A DNA stretch of 16,124 bases from Promethearchaeota archaeon (GTDB taxonomy: Archaea > Asgardarchaeota > Lokiarchaeia > Sigyniarchaeales > SOKP01): positions 1 to 16,124 of the forward strand of contig JAEOTR010000085.1 of the NCBI GenBank assembly GCA_016839705.1, in the 5' to 3' direction. How positions within the stretch are numbered: the stretch's first letter is position 1; every line of letters starts with the position of its first letter. Below are positions 1,725 through 16,124 of the stretch, piece by piece. The position numbers and the translations under genes were made by a program. Below the pieces are notes generated by a model. The model was not told the DNA's origin and searched no databases. It saw only the letters and a program-made list of their open reading frames with translations.

Positions 1725-2711
1725 TTATTTTAGCTCAATTTTAAGTAGGTCTTCTGCTAAAATGGTGTTAGGAAAGATTTCTTTGGCTTCTTCAAGAAGT
1801 TTCAGAGCGTCCTCTTGATATCTAGTTGAAATGTGAGTAAGAATTAATTGTTTTGCATTCATTTCTTTGGCATCCATAGCAGCATCAGTAGAGGTTGAAT
1901 GTTTCTTTTCTTTCGCAATTTCCGCCAATTTTACGGCGAATGTTGCTTCATGAATCAAAATATCTGAGTTCTTACCTAAATCAATAAGGGACTTAGTTGG
2001 TCTTAAATCACCGGAATATGTTATTTTCCTTCCAGGTCTTTTTGGTCCGACAATTCCTTCTTTATTTGGATCTATTTCTTTTCCATTAAATTCAACCATT
2101 TGCCCTTCTTGCAATTTACTCCATAGATGACTCTCAGGAATAGCTAACTCTCTTACTCTTTCGGGATTAAATTTGCCAGGACGAGGTTTTTCGATAAATG
2201 AATAAGCATACGTAATAACAGAATGATCTACTAAAGCGAATTTCATTGAAAAGTATTTTGTATCAAAAATAATCTTATCCGTTATTTTACTCGTTGTTTT
2301 TGGGGTTTCTGATTCTAATCCTTCAAATTCAATTAATTCGCCAGTCGTATAATCAATTTCTACAATTTTGATGGGATATTTAGCTTTTAAGCCAAGAATT
2401 TTATAATGAGTGTAAAGATATAAAAATAGGTTTCTAGGTCCAAACACTGATAGTGGAGCAGTTCGTTCGTTTAAACTTAAGCGAAATAAAAATCCGGGAA
2501 GACCAATTATATGATCTCCATGGAAATGGCTAATAAAAATCATCAAGGGTTTATTAAATTTTAAACCAGCTTCAGCAAACCTACGTTGGAAGTCTTCTCC
2601 ACAATCAAATAATATGATTTGATTTCGATACCTGAGCGCAATTGAGGATAGATTACGTTCTCTTGTAGGTGTGGCTGCAGAGCTGCCCAAAATAATTAGG
2701 TCTAGACTCAT
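1725..2711 (-). CDS. rnz: Ribonuclease Z (tRNA 3' processing endonuclease)
   Basis: LGSSAATPTRERN, LFDCGE, SHFHGDH metal motif, exosite arm (PGKF...GPKRPGRK), YSGD, HEATF, HST and LTHISTRY. Confidence 0.95.
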   Translation of the reverse strand: MSLDLIILGSSAATPTRERNLSSIALRYRNQIILFDCGEDFQRRFAEAGLKFNKPLMIFISHFHGDHIIGLPGFLFRLSLNERTAPLSVFGPRNLFLYLYTHYKILGLKAKYPIKIVEIDYTTGELIEFEGLESETPKTTSKITDKIIFDTKYFSMKFALVDHSVITYAYSFIEKPRPGKFNPERVRELAIPESHLWSKLQEGQMVEFNGKEIDPNKEGIVGPKRPGRKITYSGDLRPTKSLIDLGKNSDILIHEATFAVKLAEIAKEKKHSTSTDAAMDAKEMNAKQLILTHISTRYQEDALKLLEEAKEIFPNTILAEDLLKIELK

Positions 2712-4024
2712 TTTTTTCGTAGTTGAGCAATTTCTAATCTTTGTTCAACATTTTGTTTTTCTAAATCTTGAACGATCCCTTTTAGTTCTCGCAGTCTTAA
2801 TGTTAAATGGGGATCTTCTTGAGGTTGAGGAGGAGCTCGAATAGTCTGTTCTTCGTATTGTTTTTGTATCTCATTAAGTTTTTGATCTCTTAATTTTAAT
2901 TGGTTTTCTAATTGCCTATACCTTTTTTTAATTTGCACTGCCTCATTCTTAATCGTTTCAATTTCTTCCTCTTTTGTTTTTAATTGTTTCTGCAAAAACA
3001 TTGCCAGTTCTCTTTGCATTTTTAAGTTCCCTTCTGATTCTTTCTGTGATTTACTTGTTCCAGGTGTGTCTCCACTTTTATATTTGTTTATTTGTTCTTG
3101 AAGTGATCTTACTTGTAATTTTGATTTATTTAATTGGTTTTGTAAATCTTCTTTTAGGGTTTTCATCACTCCTGATGACACAGCATCAGATTGCCCTGAA
3201 GTTACAGGAATTTCACCTTTGCTAGATCTTTTATTTTTCAGACTTTCCATTTCGCGATTTTTGGAATCTAATAGTTCTTCTAACTCTTTATTTCTCCCTT
3301 CCATTTTTTTTATTTCTTTGGTATCACTTTTTTTATCTGGTTTTTTAGATTTTTTAGAGAGTTTCTGTTTTAAATCGATTATTTCCATCTTAGACTTATT
3401 CAATTGGTTTTGCAGATCTTCTATTAAATCTTTAGCCATTGAATCACCACTTTCACTAGCAGAGGTAGTACTCAAATCTTTTATTTTCTGGTTTAGTCCA
3501 TTGATATCTGATTTATAAGTTTCGATAATACTTTCATAGTTCCTTACCTTTTCAATAGACTCTTCCGCTTGCTTAATAATAGCTTGTAATTGGGTTATTT
3601 CTGATTTTTGCTTATTCACTTTATCCTGTAATTCTTTTACCAAGGCATTTAGCGGTGGTTTTTCTCTCAAATCTTCTACTCTGATAACCGATGAGCTTTC
3701 TTGGCTTTTTTTAAGCTTCCCCAAATCTTGTTGGAACCGAACATTTTCTTTTCTTAGGAAACCCATTCTGTCTTTTAAATCTCTAATTTCCTCATCTTTT
3801 TCCCTAAGTCTGAGAGTCATCTTAGATTCAGCTGCCTGTCTCTTCTTACCTTTTTTTTTATCATCTGGAACAAGTTGCTCTAATTGCATAACCTGAGCTT
3901 CAAGTTGTTCAAGTTTGTAGAGATAATCGATGATTTCATTATCTTTTTCTGCTATTTCTCCCTCTAACTCTCTAGTTCTAGACTCTAGTTCTGTAATTCT
4001 GGTATTATGTGTCTCTTCTGACAT
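2708..4024 (-). CDS. Long coiled-coil hypothetical protein with an internal repeat
   Basis: 438 aa, rich in K/E/Q/L with heptad periodicity. No signal peptide, TM helix or ATPase motif is visible. Its TGA overlaps the rnz ATG (ATGA). Confidence 0.8.
   Translation of the reverse strand: MSEETHNTRITELESRTRELEGEIAEKDNEIIDYLYKLEQLEAQVMQLEQLVPDDKKKGKKRQAAESKMTLRLREKDEEIRDLKDRMGFLRKENVRFQQDLGKLKKSQESSSVIRVEDLREKPPLNALVKELQDKVNKQKSEITQLQAIIKQAEESIEKVRNYESIIETYKSDINGLNQKIKDLSTTSASESGDSMAKDLIEDLQNQLNKSKMEIIDLKQKLSKKSKKPDKKSDTKEIKKMEGRNKELEELLDSKNREMESLKNKRSSKGEIPVTSGQSDAVSSGVMKTLKEDLQNQLNKSKLQVRSLQEQINKYKSGDTPGTSKSQKESEGNLKMQRELAMFLQKQLKTKEEEIETIKNEAVQIKKRYRQLENQLKLRDQKLNEIQKQYEEQTIRAPPQPQEDPHLTLRLRELKGIVQDLEKQNVEQRLEIAQLRKK
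3119..3421 (-). repeat. Two-copy intragenic repeat encoding EDLQNQLNKSK (3389-3421 and 3119-3151)
   Basis: Identical 11-aa peptide at residues 202-212 and 292-302, 270 nt apart, differing only at synonymous sites. Confidence 0.85.
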
Positions 4025-7283: not shown

Positions 7284-7919
7284 ATGGATTTTGAAAAATT
7301 AACTGAGTTAATAATCGAATTAGAGGTTGATGACATATCTGATGCAGTAAAAGAAGCATTAGATGAGGGTAAAGAACCTTTTGATGTATTAAATGCCTTA
7401 ACGAAGGGAATGGATGAAGTGGGGAGAAGATATGAAACAAAAGAATATTATCTCACTGAACTGGTTTTAGCAGGAGAAACAATGAAGGAAGCGTTTACGA
7501 TTTTAAAGCCTGCTTTAGCAGCAACAGATACGTCTACAGATAGAGTAAAAATAATTCTAGGTACTGTGAAAGGAGATAATCATGATATAGGAAAAAATAT
7601 TCTTGGTTCGCTCTTATTAAGCTCTGGTTTCGAATTGCTCGATCTAGGGATGGATGTAGATGAAAATACAATAGTAGAAACGGTTAAAGAAACTGGTGCC
7701 TCTATCGTAGCGTTAAGTTCATTGCTTACAATGACCGTCGAACAAATTAAAGTTGTCCACGAGGCTTTAATAGCAGCAGGTATTCGAGATAAGGTCAAAT
7801 TAATTGTTGGTGGTGCGCCCTTAAATGAAGAACTCGCGAAAAAACTAGGTGCAGATGATTTTGCTGATGATGCTGTTGATGGAGTTAAACATATTAAAAA
7901 GTTAGCGGGAAAAAATTAA
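7284..7919 (+). CDS. Corrinoid (cobalamin-binding) protein of methyltransferase systems, MtbC/MttC/MtaC-like
   Basis: N-terminal helical cap (ALTKGMDEVGRRYE...YYLTELVLAGETM) followed by the B12-binding Rossmann domain with GTVKGDNHDIGKNI (DxHxxG), SSLLT and VGGAP. Confidence 0.93.
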   Translation: MDFEKLTELIIELEVDDISDAVKEALDEGKEPFDVLNALTKGMDEVGRRYETKEYYLTELVLAGETMKEAFTILKPALAATDTSTDRVKIILGTVKGDNHDIGKNILGSLLLSSGFELLDLGMDVDENTIVETVKETGASIVALSSLLTMTVEQIKVVHEALIAAGIRDKVKLIVGGAPLNEELAKKLGADDFADDAVDGVKHIKKLAGKN

Positions 7920-8141: not shown

Positions 8142-8411
8142 ATGGAGGATAAAAATATGTCTGATAATGAAAGCAATGAGCTTAAATATGATGAAGAATT
8201 AGACACTCGGGGGTTGTACTGCCCAGAACCTTTATTTGAAGTTAGGAATTTAAGTGAAAATCTTGAAATTGGGCAATGTTTTAAAGTACTCGCAGATGAT
8301 CCGGCAGCTGAAGAAGATCTTAAACGATGGGCTAAGAGAACAGAAACTAAACTAGTAGAATTTCAAAAAGATGGTGAGGATTTAATCTTTTATTTTCAAA
8401 AAGTTAAATAA
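8142..8411 (+). CDS. tusA: Sulfurtransferase TusA/SirA family protein
   Basis: LDTRGLYCPEP (CPxP motif) and VLADDPAAEEDLKRWA. GGAGG at 8144-8148 suggests the true start is the in-frame ATG at 8157. Confidence 0.92.
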   Translation: MEDKNMSDNESNELKYDEELDTRGLYCPEPLFEVRNLSENLEIGQCFKVLADDPAAEEDLKRWAKRTETKLVEFQKDGEDLIFYFQKVK

Positions 8412-8426
8412 TCGAGGTTATTCAAT

Positions 8427-9620
8427 ATGAGTATATATTTAGACTATCAAGCAGCCAAACCGGTTGATGTTCGAGTTATATCAGAGATGACGGTATATTT
8501 AAACAATAAATTCGCCAATCCTTCTTCCCTCCATTGTGATGGAGATGAAGCTACAGATACATTAAGCGATTACCGACGTAAAGTTGCAGATTTCATAAAT
8601 GCTCCAGAACCTGCTTCTATAATATTTACATCTGGGGCAACCGAATCAAATAATTTAGCGATAATTGGAGGTGCAATGCGAATCAAGAAGAAAGGGAATC
8701 ATATAATAATTTCAGAAATCGAACACATTTCAATTTTAAATATAGCAAAATATTTAGAAAGACAGGGATTTGAAGTTAGTAGAGTTCCTGTAGATCAGTT
8801 TGGAATTGTAAGACTTGATAAACTTGAACGCTTAATTACCAATAAAACTATTTTAATTTCTATCTCTACTGCGAGTAATGAAGTGGGATCTATTCAACCT
8901 ATAAAAGAAATTAGCGATATTGCAGTTAAAAATAAGATTCTTTTCCACACTGACGCTGTTGCTAGTGAAAGCATTATCCCATTTGATGTCCAAAAGATCC
9001 CGGTCGATATGTTAACTCTGTCTTCAAATGATATATACGGACCCAGAGGTGTTGGAGCTTTATATCTGAAAAAAGGTGTAAGAGTGAATCCGATCATAAT
9101 TGGGGGCGGTCAGGAAAAGGGGATGAGATCTGGTTCTGAAAACATTCCAGGTATAGTAGGATTTGGCAAAGCTGCTGAGATTATGAAGTCAGAAATAGAT
9201 GATGAATCAGTCAGGTTAAAACTTTTAAGAGATAAATTAATCAAAGGAATCTTAGAAACCATTCCAAAATCCTATTTAAATGGTCATCCAGAAAAGAGAC
9301 TTCCGCATAATGCCCATTTTAGATTTGATTACATTGAAGGTGAATCGCTAATTCTGAGTCTGAAAGATGAGAAAATAGCGGCAGCCACAGGTTCAGCATG
9401 TTCTTCTAAAACGTTAGAACCATCCCATACTTTAATTGCAATGGGGTTACTACATGAAGAGGCCCATGGCTCGCTTATGATTACTTTAGGAAGAGATACA
9501 AAAGAAGAAGATGTAAATGAGTTATTGGAAAAATTACCAAATATTGTAAAAAGATTAAGATTATTATCTCCACTAACTCCTCCAGATTTAATAAAAAAGT
9601 ATAATGAGGTGAATGAATAA
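8427..9620 (+). CDS. iscS: IscS/NifS-family (group I) cysteine-desulfurase-like protein with Asp in place of the PLP lysine
   Basis: NPSSLH, FTSGATESNN, EHISI, GGGQE, RSGSEN and the catalytic loop TGSACSS (Cys325) are present. SSNDIYGP replaces the canonical SxHKxYGP. SD-like GAGGT at 8414-8418. Confidence 0.93.
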   Translation: MSIYLDYQAAKPVDVRVISEMTVYLNNKFANPSSLHCDGDEATDTLSDYRRKVADFINAPEPASIIFTSGATESNNLAIIGGAMRIKKKGNHIIISEIEHISILNIAKYLERQGFEVSRVPVDQFGIVRLDKLERLITNKTILISISTASNEVGSIQPIKEISDIAVKNKILFHTDAVASESIIPFDVQKIPVDMLTLSSNDIYGPRGVGALYLKKGVRVNPIIIGGGQEKGMRSGSENIPGIVGFGKAAEIMKSEIDDESVRLKLLRDKLIKGILETIPKSYLNGHPEKRLPHNAHFRFDYIEGESLILSLKDEKIAAATGSACSSKTLEPSHTLIAMGLLHEEAHGSLMITLGRDTKEEDVNELLEKLPNIVKRLRLLSPLTPPDLIKKYNEVNE

Positions 9621-10425
9621 TATGAGTGATATGAAATCAACCCAATATTCAGAAAAAGTATTAGAGCATTTTCGAAATCCTAGAAATGTAGGGGTAATAG
9701 AAAAAGCTGATGGTTATGGAAAGGTTGGAAATCCTGTTTGTGGCGATTTAATGGAAATATTCATCAAAGTGGAAAAAGATAAAGCAGGTGATGACATAAT
9801 TGACGATGTGAAATTTAGAACTTTCGGTTGTGGTTCAGCCGTAGCAACTTCGTCAATGGTAACAACAATGGCTAAAGGCATGAAAGTTGATGATGCTTAT
9901 GAAATTACTCGAAGTGATGTTGCTGAAGAATTGGATGGATTACCCCCAATAAAGATGCATTGTTCTAATTTAGCCGCTGACGCGTTAAAAGCAGCAATAG
10001 ATAATTATCGAGGTAAGGAAGACTCATATGTTGAAGTAGAGCATAAAGCATGTGCGGCGACAGAAGTACAAGTGATTCTAGGTATTGATGAATTTCTCGG
10101 TAAAGGTGTTTACAAGAAAGTTGATGATTTAACGGAGTTTGATAACAAAAGAGTTTTAATATTAGATACAGGAGATCAATCTTTAGAATTAGCTTTAGAA
10201 TTAACAAATCATACCGGAAGAGTTATATTAGTAACATCTGCAAAATACACGCCAGGTTCTGAAGAATTAAAAAAGAAGCTCAAAATGTCTGATGTAAAGA
10301 TTTTGCATCAATCTGAGTTATTAGAAATTCAGGGAACTGATGATGTGGAGAAGACGATTATACACGATACTGATGAGAATGAAAATTATGAGCTCTTTAT
10401 CGACGTTGTAATAATTCTTGAATAG
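9613..10425 (+). CDS. iscU: IscU/NifU-N Fe-S scaffold fused to a C-terminal degenerate thioredoxin-reductase-like (NADPH-domain) module
   Basis: YSEKVLEHFRNPRNVG, GNPVCGD, FGCGSA and LPPIKMHCSNLA give all three scaffold Cys, followed by about 120 extra aa. GAGGTG at 9606-9611 favours the ATG at 9622 as the start. Confidence 0.9.
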   Translation: MNNMSDMKSTQYSEKVLEHFRNPRNVGVIEKADGYGKVGNPVCGDLMEIFIKVEKDKAGDDIIDDVKFRTFGCGSAVATSSMVTTMAKGMKVDDAYEITRSDVAEELDGLPPIKMHCSNLAADALKAAIDNYRGKEDSYVEVEHKACAATEVQVILGIDEFLGKGVYKKVDDLTEFDNKRVLILDTGDQSLELALELTNHTGRVILVTSAKYTPGSEELKKKLKMSDVKILHQSELLEIQGTDDVEKTIIHDTDENENYELFIDVVIILE

Positions 10426-10447
10426 ATTTAATTAATAATTTTTCTCT

Positions 10448-11581
10448 CTATTTTTTCATAGATTCTAATATGTAGTCAGTTATATATTTACTATCTTTAT
10501 ATGTTTGATTCTTATAATTCACATATCTAAAATTAAAAACACATAGAGGACAGGACGAGATTAAAACTTTTGTTTCTATTTTATTGAATAATTCTTTTCC
10601 AATTTTAATACAAATACTACTATCAACACCTCTAATTCCAGATCCTGCTCCACAACAAGGACCTTCACTAGGGGTAACTGCTAGTTCATTTATCTTCAAA
10701 CCACATTTTTTTAGTAGTATTCTAGGCTCAGAGAAAAGAGGACCATTTTTGTATTTCCTCCCAAGTCGACATGGATCATGATAAGTAATTGTTCTATTCA
10801 AGGGTTTTAGGTTGATTTTACCTTCTCCTTCTAGTTCATAAACAATGTCAATTATATGTTTCACAGTTAAATCATAATCCTTAAAGTATTTCCGATAAAC
10901 TTTATCGAAAGCATATAAACAACCCCCGCAAGTTACTAACAAATTCTTTACACCAATTTTCTTAAATAACTCAATGTTTTCTTTAAAGATTTTTTTTGCA
11001 ATATCAACGTTTCCTGCTGAATAGATATATTCCCCACAACAGGGTTCATTTTCTAAAATCTTAAAATTATAGCCTGCAAGCTTTAATATCTCATATGGCG
11101 CACTCGCACTTTCTCTAACTCGAAATGATGACATGCAGCCAAAAAAAAGTAACGTATCAGAGTTTTTCTTTTCAAAGATTTCTTCCTTTTTATATTTTTC
11201 AAGTAACCAATCTAACCGTTCATCTGGGTTTCCTCCAACTGAATTGTCTTTTTCAACTATTCCCTTAATAATTTTTTTGTGATTCTCTAATGGGCCTTTA
11301 TTTTCTTCAACTATTTTAATTTTTGAAGAATGAATAATATCTGCTATTGGTATAGATTGTTGACATACTAAATTACAGGATGCGCACAAAGTACACGTAT
11401 AAATGCCTAGAAGCTCTTCATTATTTATCTCTTGATTATTAAATATCTTTTCCGCAATCTTTAATCTCCCATTTGGAGATTTATATTCTTCTTCAGTGAC
11501 TTTATAGGTGTCACAAACCTCTAAGCATGTTTTACAATCCAAACAAGATTGTATGTAATTTAAAATCTCTTTTTCATTCAT
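10448..11581 (-). CDS. Fe-S oxidoreductase, HdrD/GlcF/GlpC-like: two 4Fe-4S motifs plus two CCG domains
   Basis: CLDCKTCLEVC and CTLCASCNLVC; FFGC...EPCCG...TCGGC; YHDPC...PCCGAGSG...SCPLC. Confidence 0.9.
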   Translation of the reverse strand: MNEKEILNYIQSCLDCKTCLEVCDTYKVTEEEYKSPNGRLKIAEKIFNNQEINNEELLGIYTCTLCASCNLVCQQSIPIADIIHSSKIKIVEENKGPLENHKKIIKGIVEKDNSVGGNPDERLDWLLEKYKKEEIFEKKNSDTLLFFGCMSSFRVRESASAPYEILKLAGYNFKILENEPCCGEYIYSAGNVDIAKKIFKENIELFKKIGVKNLLVTCGGCLYAFDKVYRKYFKDYDLTVKHIIDIVYELEGEGKINLKPLNRTITYHDPCRLGRKYKNGPLFSEPRILLKKCGLKINELAVTPSEGPCCGAGSGIRGVDSSICIKIGKELFNKIETKVLISSCPLCVFNFRYVNYKNQTYKDSKYITDYILESMKK

Positions 11582-11630
11582 TATTTTAGCTCTAGTTTTA
11601 AGATATAATACTTTTTTACTATATAATAAG

Positions 11631-11648
11631 ATAATAATCTATTATTAT
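11631..11648. promoter_or_regulatory. Perfect 8-2-8 inverted repeat in the divergent promoter region
   Basis: ATAATAAT-CT-ATTATTAT, just downstream of TATATAA (11620-11626). The arms contain only A and T. Confidence 0.3.
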
Positions 11649-11692
11649 AGTTTAATATCATCGAAAAAAATAAAGGAAATCAACGATTTGCT

Positions 11693-12247
11693 TTGATTAT
11701 GAGGAATAAATTAGTCTCAGATAAAACATTAAAAGCTTATATAGATCGCTATGAAAAATTGCATAAACATCGAGATACTGATGAAGGAAACAGATTATTT
11801 GTATCAAAAGTAACTGCGGTTTCAGAACAAATAGATAATTTGCATGTTAAAGCAACAGTTGGGAATTTTGTTATAGAAAATGACGGACCAAAAGATTTAG
11901 GAGGATCTGGTAACGTTCCGGGACCAATGCCGATGCTTCTAGCAAGTCTTGCAAATTGTTTAGAAATAACAGCTTTGCTCTATCTATCAGTGTCGAATGT
12001 GAAGGTGAATTCTATTAGTGTAAAAGTAGAAGCAAAGCACGACAAAAGAAGTGCGCTTAATCCTAAAAATGAGCCATTTCCTGGTTTTTTTGATATCAAA
12101 TATATGTGGTACATTGAGACGGACGAAAATTTAAAAAAGGTCGATAACCTTCTCAAAAAAGTTGAAGAAATATGTCCTGTGAAAGGAACTTGCAGTAAAC
12201 ATCATGAGTTCCCGAGAGAAATTCATTTAGTCGAAAAAAGTTTATAG
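11693..12247 (+). CDS. OsmC/Ohr family protein
   Basis: DGPKDLGGSGNVPGP...LLASLANC and EEICPV carry the two conserved Cys. The ATG at 11699 is the likely start. Confidence 0.88.
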   Translation: MIMRNKLVSDKTLKAYIDRYEKLHKHRDTDEGNRLFVSKVTAVSEQIDNLHVKATVGNFVIENDGPKDLGGSGNVPGPMPMLLASLANCLEITALLYLSVSNVKVNSISVKVEAKHDKRSALNPKNEPFPGFFDIKYMWYIETDENLKKVDNLLKKVEEICPVKGTCSKHHEFPREIHLVEKSL

Positions 12248-12328
12248 ATAACTTTAAATCGATTTGTAAGTGTTGTAGTATAGAAATTAGTTAAAAATGG
12301 TATTTAAACAAAAATTTAGGTAAAAAAA

Positions 12329-14716
12329 ATGGAACGTGTAATAATTGTAGGTGGAGTCGCTGGTGGGGCAAGCGCAGCAGCAAGACTTCGTCGCTTAAAA
12401 GAAGATTATGAAATCATTATGCTTGATAAAGGTCCTTATGTTAGTTTTGCAAACTGTGGGCTCCCTTATTACATTGGAAATATAATAAAGGATCGTGAGT
12501 CTTTAGAACTCGTGACTCCAGAAAGGTTTCTTGAAAGGTTCAATATTGATGTAAGGGTAATTAATGAGGTAACATCAATAGATAAAGAGAAAAGGAACGT
12601 TAAAGTCAGAGATTTAAGTAAAAATAAAGAATATACTCTCGAATATGATTCCTTAATCTTAGCAACTGGATCAAAACCTATAGTTCCACCCTTCCAAGGC
12701 CTTGATCAAGTCCCATATTTTACTGTGTGGACAATTCCAGATGCTGTAAAAATAAGGGAATATGTTGAAAAATATCATATCAAAAATGCCGTTATTGTTG
12801 GTGGAGGATTTATTGGCTTAGAGATGGTAGAAAACTTAGCAGAGAAAGGTGTTAGAGTAAAAATCGTTGAAATGTTAGATCAGGTTATACCCCCTATGGA
12901 TAAAGAAATGGCGCAGTTTATTCATCAAGAATTAATTTTGAATGGAGTATGCCTTGTTTTAAAAGATCCAGTTGATTCCTTTGGAAGTTCTGACGACGAT
13001 AAACCATATATTAAAACTAAAAGTGGGAGAATAATCGAAACAGATTTAATTATTTTATCCATAGGGATTAAACCTCAAAGTGAATTAGCAAAAAATACCG
13101 GTTTAGAAATATCAGAAAGAGGATATGTGGTAGTAAATAAAAGAATGCAAACATCTGATCCAAATATCTATGCTGTGGGAGATGTTGTTCAAGTTCAACA
13201 TTTTCAAACTCAAAAACCGATCTCAATGGCTTTAGCAGGTCCTGCAAATAAACAAGGAAGAATAGCGGCAGAAAATATTGCTGGGAGAAATTCAGAATAT
13301 AAAGGTGTTTTAGGAGCGTCTGTTGTTAAAATTTTTGACATGACCGTTGCAATGGTAGGTTTAACAGAAAAACAGTTACAAAATCTAGATATCGAATATG
13401 ATAAGATATATATCCATCCAAATAATCATGCAGGGTATTATCCTGGGGCCGTTCCTATGGCACTCAAACTGATATTTGAAATTCCTTCGGGGAAAGTTTT
13501 AGGGGCTCAAATAGTAGGTGGTGCTGGGAGTGAAAAAAGAGTGGATGTATTATCAACAATTATAAAAATGGGGGGAACTGTCTTCGACTTAGAAGAATTA
13601 GAATTAACCTATGCACCACCTTATGGTTCCGCAAAAGACCCTGTAAATATGGCTGGATTTGTTGCAGCGAATTATCTTAGAAAGGACATGCCTATTTGGC
13701 ATTGGCATGATTTTAGTAATATCGCAAAAAACGGGGGAATATTATTAGATGTCAGAACTAAAGAAGAATTTGCTGCAAGAACTATTGAAGGTTCAATAAA
13801 TATACCAATTGAAGAATTGAGAACCCGACTAAATGAAATTCCTTTCGATAAACCAATTTTTGCCTACTGTGAAGTAGGATATCGGAGTTATTTAGCATTA
13901 AGAATTCTTTTACAAAGTGGTTTTAATGAAGCGTATGAATTGACTGGAGGATTTAAACTTTTTGAGATGGCAAACGCTACCACAGAAGAAATTATGGCGG
14001 CATGCGGAGGATCCGAAAATGTTATCGAAGAATTTGTTCATGAAAAAGCTACTAAAACTGATGATTATATAGAAGTTGATGCTAGTGGGGTTTCATGCCC
14101 GGGACCATTGAATGCCTTAATTAAAGGGCTTGAAACATTACCAGAAAATAAGAAATTAAAAATATATGCAACAGACCCAGGATTTAAATCTAGTGTTGAG
14201 GCATATTCTAAATTGAATGAAACTGTAAAATTGTTATATCTTGGAAAAGAAAAAGGGATGCTAGTTGCGATTTTAGAAAAAGGTGAACATATTGTAGAAA
14301 CTGTAACACTTGTTAAAAAGAAAACTAGAAAGGAATTAAGGTCTCCTGACGCACCTCCAATTTCAGATATTAGTGTTGATGAGTTATATGAACGCCTTGA
14401 TACTGAAGATGAACCACCACTTTTAATAGATGTACGAACGCCACAAGAATATAATGGTCCCGCAGGTCATATTAAGAATACTAAATTGATTCCATTAGGA
14501 GAGCTTTTAAATAATACAGATGATATACAAAAATATAAAAATGATGAAATCGTCTCTATTTGCCACTCTGGTTCACGTTCTATGATGGCAGCCCAAATAT
14601 TAGCACGAGCAGGATTCAAAGATGTCAGAAACTTAACAGGTGGAATGATGATGTGGCATAGAAAAGGCTATCCTTTTAAATCAGAAGAATCGAGAATGAA
14701 AGGAACTTCTTATTGA
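12329..14716 (+). CDS. cdr: CoA-disulfide/persulfide reductase fused to rhodanese, TusA and a second rhodanese domain
   Basis: FAD motif GGVAGG, SFANC (Cys43), NAD(H) motif GGGFIG...VE, YAVGD and YAPPY. RHD1 has DVRT...YCEVGYRS (Cys514), the TusA domain has DASGVSCPGP (Cys590), and RHD2 has DVRTPQEY...ICHSGSRS (Cys745)...GGMMMW. Confidence 0.92.
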   Translation: MERVIIVGGVAGGASAAARLRRLKEDYEIIMLDKGPYVSFANCGLPYYIGNIIKDRESLELVTPERFLERFNIDVRVINEVTSIDKEKRNVKVRDLSKNKEYTLEYDSLILATGSKPIVPPFQGLDQVPYFTVWTIPDAVKIREYVEKYHIKNAVIVGGGFIGLEMVENLAEKGVRVKIVEMLDQVIPPMDKEMAQFIHQELILNGVCLVLKDPVDSFGSSDDDKPYIKTKSGRIIETDLIILSIGIKPQSELAKNTGLEISERGYVVVNKRMQTSDPNIYAVGDVVQVQHFQTQKPISMALAGPANKQGRIAAENIAGRNSEYKGVLGASVVKIFDMTVAMVGLTEKQLQNLDIEYDKIYIHPNNHAGYYPGAVPMALKLIFEIPSGKVLGAQIVGGAGSEKRVDVLSTIIKMGGTVFDLEELELTYAPPYGSAKDPVNMAGFVAANYLRKDMPIWHWHDFSNIAKNGGILLDVRTKEEFAARTIEGSINIPIEELRTRLNEIPFDKPIFAYCEVGYRSYLALRILLQSGFNEAYELTGGFKLFEMANATTEEIMAACGGSENVIEEFVHEKATKTDDYIEVDASGVSCPGPLNALIKGLETLPENKKLKIYATDPGFKSSVEAYSKLNETVKLLYLGKEKGMLVAILEKGEHIVETVTLVKKKTRKELRSPDAPPISDISVDELYERLDTEDEPPLLIDVRTPQEYNGPAGHIKNTKLIPLGELLNNTDDIQKYKNDEIVSICHSGSRSMMAAQILARAGFKDVRNLTGGMMMWHRKGYPFKSEESRMKGTSY

Positions 14717-14771
14717 TCTTATCTATTCTATTTCTCCTTTTAATTCATAAGTATAAACATTAAAATTTAGG

Positions 14772-14787
14772 GGAAATACTTATAAAT
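14772..14787 (+). promoter_or_regulatory. Candidate BRE/TATA for rubrerythrin
   Basis: GGAAATAC followed by TTATAAAT, about 55 nt before the ATG. SD-like GAGGT at 14831-14835. Confidence 0.4.
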
Positions 14788-14842
14788 CCAAGTACATTCA
14801 AAAATATCGAAAATTCAAATTAATAAAAAAGAGGTAAAAAGT

Positions 14843-15433
14843 ATGAAAGAAACAGCTAAAAAATTATTCACTGCCTTCGTTGGCGAATCACAGGCGAGAA
14901 ATCGCTATACACTATTTTCAAAAGTCGCTAAAAAAGAAGGGCTTGTATTAGTGTCTGAGATATTCCTTGAAACCGCAGATCAAGAAAGAGAACACGGAGG
15001 TTGGTTCTATCGGATGTTACAAGAGTTAAAAAATAAAGATCCCTTTGATGAGATGAAAGTACTCCCAGATGCAAGTTTTCCAACAACCCATGGAACTACA
15101 GTTGAAAATTTAAAGTCTGCCATTGCGGGTGAAGATATGGAATGGCAAACATTGTATCCCGATATAGCTAAGACTGCAGAAAAGGAAGGTTATAATGATA
15201 TTGCTGCAAGAGTGCACGCTATTATGGTTGCTGAAAAACATCATTCTGAGAGATACGGTAAACTCTTAAAATTGGTAGGTGATGATGCTTTTTTCAAACG
15301 TGGAGAGAAGGTTGTATGGGTATGTATGGAATGCGGGTATGAAGTAGAAATGAAAGAATTACCTAAAGACTTTAAATGTCCCTCATGTGACCATCCTAGA
15401 TCCTACTATAGAAAGAAATCTGAAGAATTCTAA
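14843..15433 (+). CDS. rbr: Rubrerythrin
   Basis: Di-iron motifs AFVGESQARNRY, QEREH, AIAGE and AEKHH, plus a C-terminal rubredoxin-like domain CMECG...CPSCDH. Confidence 0.95.
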   Translation: MKETAKKLFTAFVGESQARNRYTLFSKVAKKEGLVLVSEIFLETADQEREHGGWFYRMLQELKNKDPFDEMKVLPDASFPTTHGTTVENLKSAIAGEDMEWQTLYPDIAKTAEKEGYNDIAARVHAIMVAEKHHSERYGKLLKLVGDDAFFKRGEKVVWVCMECGYEVEMKELPKDFKCPSCDHPRSYYRKKSEEF

Positions 15434-15638: not shown

Positions 15639-16124
15639 ATGATAAGTGAAAATAAAAACATAATAAATGAAAAACCGAAACTCAACATAAACTATGCAAA
15701 TAATAAGAAAAATCTTACCATTTTCTTTATTCTCAGTTTTGTCTTGATAATATTAACTGTAATTATCCAAATTGGGGTTAGAAATCTTATAGATAATTAT
15801 TTTGTAGACATGTTTTTTGCAATTTTAGCTATAACTACGCCAACTATTTCAGCTGTTATTATATCAGGTTTAAACGATGGGTGGCAAGGGATTAAGAATC
15901 TTTTTGCCGGATTTCGAATATGGAAAGTAAATTTTCTTTGGTATTTTGCAGGATTATTATTTATTATTGCTCCTTTGATTTTTGCTCTTATTTATCTTCT
16001 TTTTGGAGGTCAAGCCCCAGGAGCAGCACCAACTTATACATTACCAATATTTCTTCTAGATTTGTTTATATCATTAATAACTGGGCCTTTAAACGAAGAA
16101 GCTGGTTGGCGTGGATATGCATTA
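15639..16124 (+). CDS. CPBP (CAAX type II / Abi) family intramembrane metalloprotease, runs off the window end
   Basis: Not in the ORF track because it has no stop in the window. Manual translation from ATG 15639 gives MISENKNIINEKPKL..., several TM segments, PTISA, WKVNFLWY and the terminal GPLNEEAGWRGYAL, which is the EExxxR motif 1. Confidence 0.88.
   Translation, partial: MISENKNIINEKPKLNINYANNKKNLTIFFILSFVLIILTVIIQIGVRNLIDNYFVDMFFAILAITTPTISAVIISGLNDGWQGIKNLFAGFRIWKVNFLWYFAGLLFIIAPLIFALIYLLFGGQAPGAAPTYTLPIFLLDLFISLITGPLNEEAGWRGYAL

Follow-up and report, generated by a model that had tools for sequence, protein, structure and literature searches.

A lysine-less IscS and IscU are encoded with persulfide carriers at a conserved locus of Asgard archaea

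Gene content of the locus

The window analyzed here, a stretch of 16,124 nucleotides with 31% GC, forms the start of a contig (G000:C83) in the 3.36 Mb genome bin of an Asgard archaeon (Promethearchaeota, Loki-type), which is 93% complete. Between positions 8142 and 15433 it encodes seven proteins of sulfur, Fe–S and thiol-redox chemistry, among them the sulfur carrier TusA, an IscS homolog that lacks the catalytic lysine, and the Fe–S scaffold protein IscU. A sequence-only reading of this DNA had proposed that the seven genes form a cysteine-independent, persulfide-fed island for Fe–S assembly and sulfur relay. Open reading frame (ORF) listing and Pfam searches recovered all seven genes, with the positions and domains given in that proposal.

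The first three genes lie on the forward strand and are separated by 15 nt or overlap. The tusA gene (8142–8411) encodes an 89-residue protein (Pfam PF01206, E = 6.6e-19) and lies 15 nt upstream of iscS (8427–9620), whose product is a lysine-less, IscS-like class-V aminotransferase that resembles MisS and belongs to the Archaeoglobus fulgidus IscS2 type (Pfam Aminotran_5, E = 5e-73). The iscU gene (9613–10425) specifies a scaffold domain (9613–10035; Pfam NifU_N at residues 11–136, E = 3e-47), followed by a linker and a C-terminal domain of ~130 residues (10036–10425) that was recognized with phmmer against the Protein Data Bank (PDB), NCBIfam, and Foldseek. Convergent with this module, a reverse-strand gene (10448–11581) encodes an HdrD/TfrB-like Fe–S protein with two CCG domains, a Fer4_8 domain and two [4Fe-4S] motifs, and separates iscU from three further forward-strand genes in the window. 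These encode an OsmC-like thiol peroxidase (11693–12247; Pfam OsmC, E = 2.8e-15), a 795-residue protein that joins a CoA-disulfide reductase (CDR; Pfam Pyr_redox_2/Pyr_redox_dim) to rhodanese, TusA and second rhodanese domains (12329–14716), and rubrerythrin, a peroxide reductase (14843–15433; Pfam Rubrerythrin and RUBY_RBDX). The sequence-only reading had also pointed to missing accessory genes, and Pfam indeed detected no ferredoxin, HscAB, frataxin or A-type carrier domain among window ORFs of at least 60 residues.

IscS lacks the lysine but keeps the loop cysteine

The IscS of the window has the type I IscS/NifS fold of class-V aminotransferases, and the loss of the lysine that forms the Schiff base with pyridoxal 5′-phosphate (PLP), claimed from the sequence, is real. 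Asp202 occupies this position within the motif SSNDIYGP. The closest solved structure is A. fulgidus IscS2 (PDB 4EB5, 4EB7 and 4HVK; E = 7.2e-136 for 4EB5 over residues 4–383); the motif is the same in 4EB5 and 4HVK, and the engineered D199K mutant 4R5F differs from it at this position only (SSNKIYGP). Two IscS paralogs elsewhere in the same genome carry the lysine (SAHKLYGP and AAHKLYGP). Aligned with 150 cluster representatives, the window protein has also lost the equivalent of Gln183, whereas it keeps those of His104, Asp180 and Cys328. The cysteine of the mobile loop, which the earlier reading had described as retained, is present as Cys325 (GSACSS) and is conserved in both lysine-less clades described below.

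Proteins of this type are known from other archaea. The A. fulgidus IscS, with Asp199, has no desulfurase activity and gives a cysteine ligand to the [2Fe-2S] cluster on IscU, and Methanosarcina acetivorans IscS1 likewise lacks the lysine (PMC8918507, PMC7585200). The window IscS is a further member of this group. From the missing lysine and the lost Gln183 equivalent we predict that it has no cysteine desulfurase activity, and the A. fulgidus structure suggests that Cys325 would act as a ligand of the IscU cluster.

IscU carries a degenerate NADPH-binding domain

The scaffold part of IscU is canonical. Its cluster ligands Cys43, Asp45, Cys73, His116 and Cys117 are invariant in an alignment of 22 orthologs, the protein scores 194.4 bits with the NCBIfam model NifU_clost (cut-off 187.9), and Foldseek searches with the IscU model retrieved the IscU structures 7C8M and 4EB5_C, the latter being 63% identical in the IscU domain.

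The additional domain noted in the sequence-only reading can now be assigned. Residues ~155–268 are homologous to the NADPH-binding subdomain of thioredoxin reductases (TrxR) and of TrxR-type ferredoxin-NADP reductases (FNR), as seen in phmmer matches to 2ZBW (E = 8.2e-9, 2ZBW residues 131–247), 5XHU and 3LZW, in the NCBIfam match TRX_reduct (residues 155–268), and in Foldseek matches of the AlphaFold2 model (predicted local distance difference test score, pLDDT, 79.7) to TrxR/FNR structures. The domain is degenerate: the GxGxxA loop, GGGDSA in the reductases, reads DTGDQS, and CxxC and HRR motifs and an FAD domain are absent from the extension. We therefore rejected an active reductase as an explanation of the extension; judged by its sequence, the domain is a TrxR/FNR homolog but no reductase by itself. 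It is joined to the scaffold by a linker (residues 136–153) that is predicted to be disordered (pLDDT < 50) and whose sole cysteine, Cys147, is invariant across the 22 sequences. The extension is absent from the IscU proteins encoded beside more distant lysine-less iscS genes.

TusA and the four-domain CDR keep their sulfur-carrying cysteines

The stand-alone TusA scores 68 bits with the Pfam model (cut-off 28.6), carries its active cysteine in a CPxP motif (GLYCPEP) and keeps the acidic DDP/EED residues. The first 550 residues of the four-domain CDR align end to end with the CoA-disulfide reductase–rhodanese (CoADR-RHD) of Bacillus anthracis (3ICR, E = 3.5e-177), and the protein also matches Shewanella Npsr (3NTA) and the CoA-persulfide reductase (CoAPR) of Enterococcus faecalis (8A56). 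The latter enzyme converts CoA persulfide to CoA and H2S via a rhodanese-bound persulfide (PMC9405070). In the Asgard protein, the redox cysteine of the CDR (SFANCGLPY) and that of the first rhodanese (AYCEVGYRS) align with those of 3ICR and 3NTA, in keeping with the CoADR-RHD and CoA-persulfide reductase families; the C-terminal TusA domain (GVSCPGP) and the second rhodanese (SICHSGSRS) have their cysteines too, so that all four are kept. The protein is thus a predicted CoA-disulfide/persulfide reductase, with putative CoA binding and NAD(P)H-dependent persulfide reduction. Elsewhere in the genome, a TusA-domain match (G000:C11:433-621) lies within a 358-residue open frame at a contig start and may be the tail of a paralog of this four-domain protein.

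Among the seven genes, no CsoR/CstR-like repressor or persulfide dioxygenase domain was found, and the locus does not qualify as a cst-like operon. The only gene of the metallo-beta-lactamase fold in the window (1725–2711), encoded ~6 kb upstream and on the opposite strand, has tRNase Z-like matches in Pfam.

The remaining three proteins are of familiar kinds. Rubrerythrin combines the di-iron four-helix domain with a rubredoxin-like domain and exceeds the cut-off of the NCBIfam equivalog model RuberyRbr (217.5 bits against 200). The best NCBIfam match of the CCG protein is TfrB, below cut-off. The OsmC-like protein has both cysteines (LANCLE and EICPV). Its top NCBIfam match is the “OsmC-related (seleno)protein” model, again below cut-off, and its ORF as listed begins with TTG; translation may in fact start at an ATG that follows two codons later.

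Conservation across Asgard loci

A scan of one genome per species yielded 80 loci, 73 of which are Asgard orthologous loci, and all window proteins were compared with these by tblastn. The core of the locus is strictly conserved: tusA lies upstream of the iscS ortholog in 66/66 Asgard loci that extend far enough to show it, the lysine position of IscS holds Asp or Glu in all related loci and Lys in none, and all 68 Asgard IscU orthologs carry the C-terminal extension. A gene for the four-domain CDR follows iscU on the same strand in 42 of 51 loci, and rubrerythrin is encoded downstream in 37/47. The distance between iscU and the CDR gene was measured at 39 loci; at 19 of them it is no more than a few hundred bases from stop to start. 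Of 51 related loci, 15 encode the CCG protein at this position and 7 encode OsmC. The supposed linkage of the genes consequently stands for tusA, iscS (Asp) and iscU and, less strictly, for CDR and rubrerythrin, and fails for CCG and OsmC, which are variable, peripheral inserts rather than part of the core. A fixed seven-gene unit was rejected on these counts and because the CCG gene is on the opposite strand.

In 36 of the 66 loci, a gene for a 120-residue protein, assigned to DsrE by Pfam, lies between tusA and iscS. A search with the protein as query found no dsrE ortholog in the genome of the window; in this lineage, which lacks the gene, tusA and iscS are direct neighbors.

Synteny extends upstream of the sulfur genes. 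A methyltransferase-type corrinoid protein (MtbC/MtgC-like; 7284–7919, forward strand) is encoded directly upstream of tusA, as in 44/62 related Asgard loci; the window holds no cognate methyltransferase gene. Further upstream, Pfam and NCBIfam identified an ABC ATPase, an FtsX permease and a ThiS-like protein. Four window ORFs of 145 to 438 residues (3–440, 518–1222, 2708–4024 and 15639–16124) gave no Pfam match that passes the threshold; the longest, of 438 residues, has only a faint LigT-like hit. Rfam and tRNA scans of the window returned no match.

Lysine-less IscS proteins beyond the Loki lineage

A HMMER search of representatives of 50%-identity clusters retrieved 150 close IscS relatives, 19 of which lack the lysine. 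In a FastTree phylogeny, whose support values are local SH-like only, the lysine-less proteins fall mainly into two separate groups. Clade A comprises 12 rows, all lysine-less, with a support of 95, and includes the window IscS; clade B, distant from it, contains eight lysine-less rows and one Lys-type row. The presence of at least two such groups weakens a single origin of the lysine loss as the whole explanation of the gene association. Both clades have lost the Gln183 equivalent and kept the loop cysteine, which fits selection on the cysteine and not on PLP chemistry.

The gene neighborhoods of these proteins (lysine-less IscS is written IscS* in the following) vary in order, and most include TusA and/or DsrE. 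In clade A, P0127 has the arrangement TusA-DsrE-IscS*-IscU, which recurs with the extended IscU (IscU::ext) in the Hel/Sigyn loci; P0129 has DsrE-IscS*-IscU, P0126 has ferredoxin-TusA-IscS*, and L094, from Nitrospinota, has TusA-IscS*. P0140 encodes IscS*-IscU and then a second Aminotran_5 protein, with no carrier, and the contig of P0134 is too short to judge. In clade B, P0153 shows IscS*-DsrE-TusA and P0176 IscS*-TusA, and P0218 has no carrier. The Lys-type contexts P0130, P0131, P0133, P0137 and Thermoplasmata L095, L096 and L097 have an adjacent IscU and neither TusA nor DsrE. Across both clades and outside the Loki lineage, TusA and/or DsrE thus accompany IscS in 7/9 lysine-less and 0/7 Lys-type contexts (Fisher ~0.003, for a small sample that is not phylogenetically independent). 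That the genes occur in differing orders, and in two clades, argues for a linkage that was selected and not merely inherited.

Two oddities emerged from this comparison. A contig filed under a bacterial metagenome-assembled genome (L091, DATKTP010000110.1, labeled Candidatus Deferrimicrobium) carries a TusA-DsrE-IscS*-IscU::ext cassette, which short branches join to Helarchaeota; either the contig is Asgard DNA that was misbinned, or the cassette was transferred recently. In two Methanomassiliicoccaceae genomes (L095:11163-12785 and L099:11163-12779), IscU is ~540 residues long and its NifU_N match is split by a LAGLIDADG homing-endonuclease domain, so that IscU probably contains an intein.

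Other sulfur-transfer genes in the genome

Together with the proposal of a cysteine-independent system, a search for Lys-type IscS and Suf genes elsewhere in the genome had been suggested. The two Lys-type IscS paralogs described above were found in this way; SufB/D gave no match in the 93% complete genome. There are three NifU_N matches beyond the window IscU, and one of the Lys-type iscS genes lies ~2.7 kb from two IscU-like genes. TusA has seven matches in the genome, none of which shares a contig with either Lys-type IscS. Independence from cysteine at the level of the organism is rejected on account of the Lys-type IscS genes and the additional IscU copies. “Cysteine-independent” applies at most to the tusA-iscS-iscU module, and since two Lys-type IscS are available, cysteine may still be the ultimate sulfur source.

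One of the two IscU-like genes near the Lys-type iscS (L011:1471-1950; G000:C85:74241-74642), which lies beside a second, intact one, has an unusual structure. It contains an in-frame TGA in a nine-residue insertion before the first cluster cysteine (GNEI-TGA-KNLTQYPT-CGDLM) and no obvious ATG start, and may be a decaying copy or contain a selenocysteine site.

Relation to known systems

The locus is a real conserved feature that places a known kind of protein pair, a dead IscS of the A. fulgidus type with its IscU, in a new genomic setting. With A. fulgidus IscS2-IscU (4EB5, 4EB7, 4HVK; D199K 4R5F) and M. acetivorans IscS1 it shares the Asp-for-Lys exchange, the cysteine loop and the adjacent IscU. 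It differs from the A. fulgidus pair in the degenerate TrxR/FNR NADPH domain and the invariant linker cysteine of IscU, and the published descriptions consulted do not mention TusA, DsrE or CDR partners. The combination of IscS-like and IscU-like proteins without HscAB, ferredoxin, frataxin or A-type carrier at the locus is also typical of the minimal iron–sulfur (MIS) system MisS/MisU (PMC13066941). However, MIS is defined by an active cysteine desulfurase (PMC12192291), whereas the Asgard IscS lacks the catalytic lysine and has sulfur-carrier genes attached. The accessory genes of the bacterial iron–sulfur cluster (ISC) system, hscBA, fdx, iscA and cyaY/iscX, were not found among window ORFs of at least 60 residues, and the locus is therefore filed as MIS-like and not as ISC.

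Its sulfur-transfer partners likewise have known relatives that work in other contexts. The E. coli relay of IscS and TusA (PDB 3LVJ) involves the same two protein families, with TusA Cys19 docking ~4 Å from IscS Cys328 (PMC2854127), but there sulfur passes from cysteine to IscS and on to TusA, whereas any flow in the Asgard pair, whose IscS is predicted to generate no persulfide, would have to reverse or use IscS as an adaptor only. The adjacency of tusA and dsrE in about half of the related Asgard loci recalls the DsrE3–TusA cascades of sHdr/rDsr sulfur oxidizers, in which DsrE3 and TusA are loaded by polysulfide and persulfide transfer from DsrE3 to TusA is established (PMC11094781). Here, in contrast, sHdr and Dsr genes are absent, the acceptor would be a biosynthetic IscS*-IscU pair, and the genome of the window lacks dsrE. 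Compared with CoADR-RHD, Npsr and CoA-persulfide reductase, the Asgard CDR corresponds end to end in its reductase and first rhodanese, with both catalytic cysteines, and adds the C-terminal TusA and second rhodanese domains; unlike in the CstR-regulated cst operon, it is encoded beside Fe–S assembly genes. A description of the link between TusA/DsrE and lysine-less IscS, or of the fusion of IscU with a TrxR-like domain, was not found in the literature searched, whose coverage leaves out most subscription journals.

Models for sulfur transfer at the locus

The best explanation of these data, which we put forward tentatively and with somewhat less than even confidence, is an MIS-type Fe–S assembly pair with a dead IscS that is fed persulfide by TusA. 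Its core would be a minimal assembly pair in which IscS is unable to cleave cysteine and keeps only the mobile Cys325 loop, which would accept persulfide and ligate the nascent [2Fe-2S] cluster on IscU as in A. fulgidus. Sulfur would reach this pair as sulfane sulfur bound to TusA, whose gene is presumably co-transcribed, and pass to Cys325 of IscS and then to IscU; in about half of the relatives, DsrE would load TusA. The CDR-rhodanese-TusA-rhodanese protein would take up sulfane sulfur on its carrier cysteines and either hand it over or, with NAD(P)H as the reductant, convert it via CoA persulfide to sulfide. Such a reduction would provide two electrons per sulfur, the part that ferredoxin plays in bacterial ISC. 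Rubrerythrin, joined here by OsmC, would clear peroxide that otherwise destroys clusters and persulfides.

The elements of this model differ in strength. For the partnership of lysine-less IscS with persulfide carriers, the association is well supported and the mechanism is plausible. As an IscS that cannot make persulfide is no donor to TusA, a role as acceptor or adaptor is its natural reading, and we infer from this the direction of transfer from TusA to IscS to IscU. CDR may function in Fe–S assembly as a supplier of electrons or sulfide, and the degenerate NADPH domain and Cys147 may have roles as well. The case for CDR is the weaker one: it is often linked, but in Loki-type lineages only, and those of its relatives that have been characterized clear reactive sulfur. 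A more elaborate version, a complete NAD(P)H-driven and cysteine-free assembly line, is very improbable in our view. Here, CDR would take up environmental sulfane sulfur and give both sulfur and electrons, in place of desulfurase and ferredoxin, TusA with or without DsrE would shuttle the sulfur to Cys325, the NADPH domain of IscU would dock the flavoenzyme, and Cys147 would be a swinging persulfide arm or a fourth ligand.

Several observations weigh against feeding by TusA. The IscS of E. coli binds either TusA or IscU and not both at once (PMC2854127). The genome retains Lys-type IscS and other IscU copies, through which cysteine could be the ultimate source. The unrelated upstream genes for the ABC transporter/FtsX, the corrinoid protein and ThiS are conserved in position as well; inherited gene order therefore accounts for some of the conservation, and the contrast between lysine-less and Lys-type contexts has the limits of sample and independence given above. 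IscS* and TusA are paired without an adjacent IscU in P0126, P0153, P0176 and L094, and the conserved partnership is therefore that of IscS* and TusA, not necessarily Fe–S assembly. P0140 and P0218 lack both TusA and DsrE. Finally, the linkage to CDR and rubrerythrin is absent in Hel/Sigyn loci and in the non-Asgard examples and could be inherited synteny.

As an alternative, IscS*-IscU could build clusters directly from free sulfide, with TusA and DsrE not feeding IscS* but serving, for instance, thiolation of tRNA or molybdopterin, or sulfane buffering; the IscU-free pairs speak for this. Asgard habitats are sulfidic sediments, which suits such a scaffold. Sulfide has been proposed as the source for A. 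fulgidus IscS-IscU (PMC8918507), and Methanococcus maripaludis and SUF-like minimal (SMS) systems use it (PMC7585200, PMC12192291). This account nevertheless leaves unexplained why TusA and DsrE stand beside lysine-less and not Lys-type IscS and why the loop cysteine is retained in both lysine-less clades, and an IscS that forms no persulfide cannot donate to TusA; we consider it unlikely. We think still less of a relay in which the Lys-type paralogs make the persulfide and TusA carries it to the dead IscS-IscU pair, a longer route that would not be cysteine-independent. Both paralogs are intact, transfer from IscS to TusA is the canonical direction (PMC2854127), and in P0140 a second Aminotran_5 gene directly follows IscS*-IscU. 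However, neither paralog shares a contig with any of the seven TusA matches, one has IscU genes of its own ~2.7 kb away, and partners such as DsrE, rhodanese and CDR typically handle inorganic sulfane sulfur and not sulfur derived from cysteine (PMC11094781, PMC9405070).

The downstream genes could also belong to a stress island, in which CDR, as a CoA-persulfide/polysulfide reductase, would detoxify reactive sulfur species while rubrerythrin and OsmC dispose of peroxide. Adjacency to the assembly genes would then stem from inherited synteny, or from co-regulation for the repair of clusters, and not from a shared sulfur pathway. The nearest characterized relatives of CDR act in the clearance of such species (8A56; PMC9405070), its linkage with rubrerythrin does not extend beyond Loki-type lineages, the unrelated upstream genes show the same degree of synteny, the presence of CCG and OsmC varies, and in the window the opposite-strand CCG gene splits iscU from the OsmC-CDR-rubrerythrin genes. 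Against this stand the close same-strand spacing of iscU and CDR at 19 of the 39 loci with a measured distance, the TusA domain within CDR that matches the stand-alone TusA beside IscS*, and the lack of a CstR-type regulator or persulfide dioxygenase, the cst operon genes, in the window. We regard a stress island as an unlikely explanation, and retain feeding of the dead IscS-IscU pair by TusA as the working model.

Implications

The sulfur source of the lysine-less IscS-IscU pair has been described as open, with sulfide proposed (PMC8918507), and reviews state that neither this sulfur supply nor the electron donor of minimal Fe–S systems is known (PMC8918507, PMC13066941). The link of lysine-less IscS to TusA and DsrE makes the question of the sulfur source testable with four or five small proteins, and in Loki-type Asgard archaea the link reaches a persulfide-reducing flavoenzyme. 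To this, the window adds a lineage without dsrE and a measure of how far the island is conserved, CDR and rubrerythrin being often present and CCG and OsmC rarely. The locus bears on the formation of Fe–S clusters from inorganic sulfur at a time when cysteine desulfurases had not yet taken over this task, and on Fe–S biogenesis in the archaeal relatives of eukaryotes.

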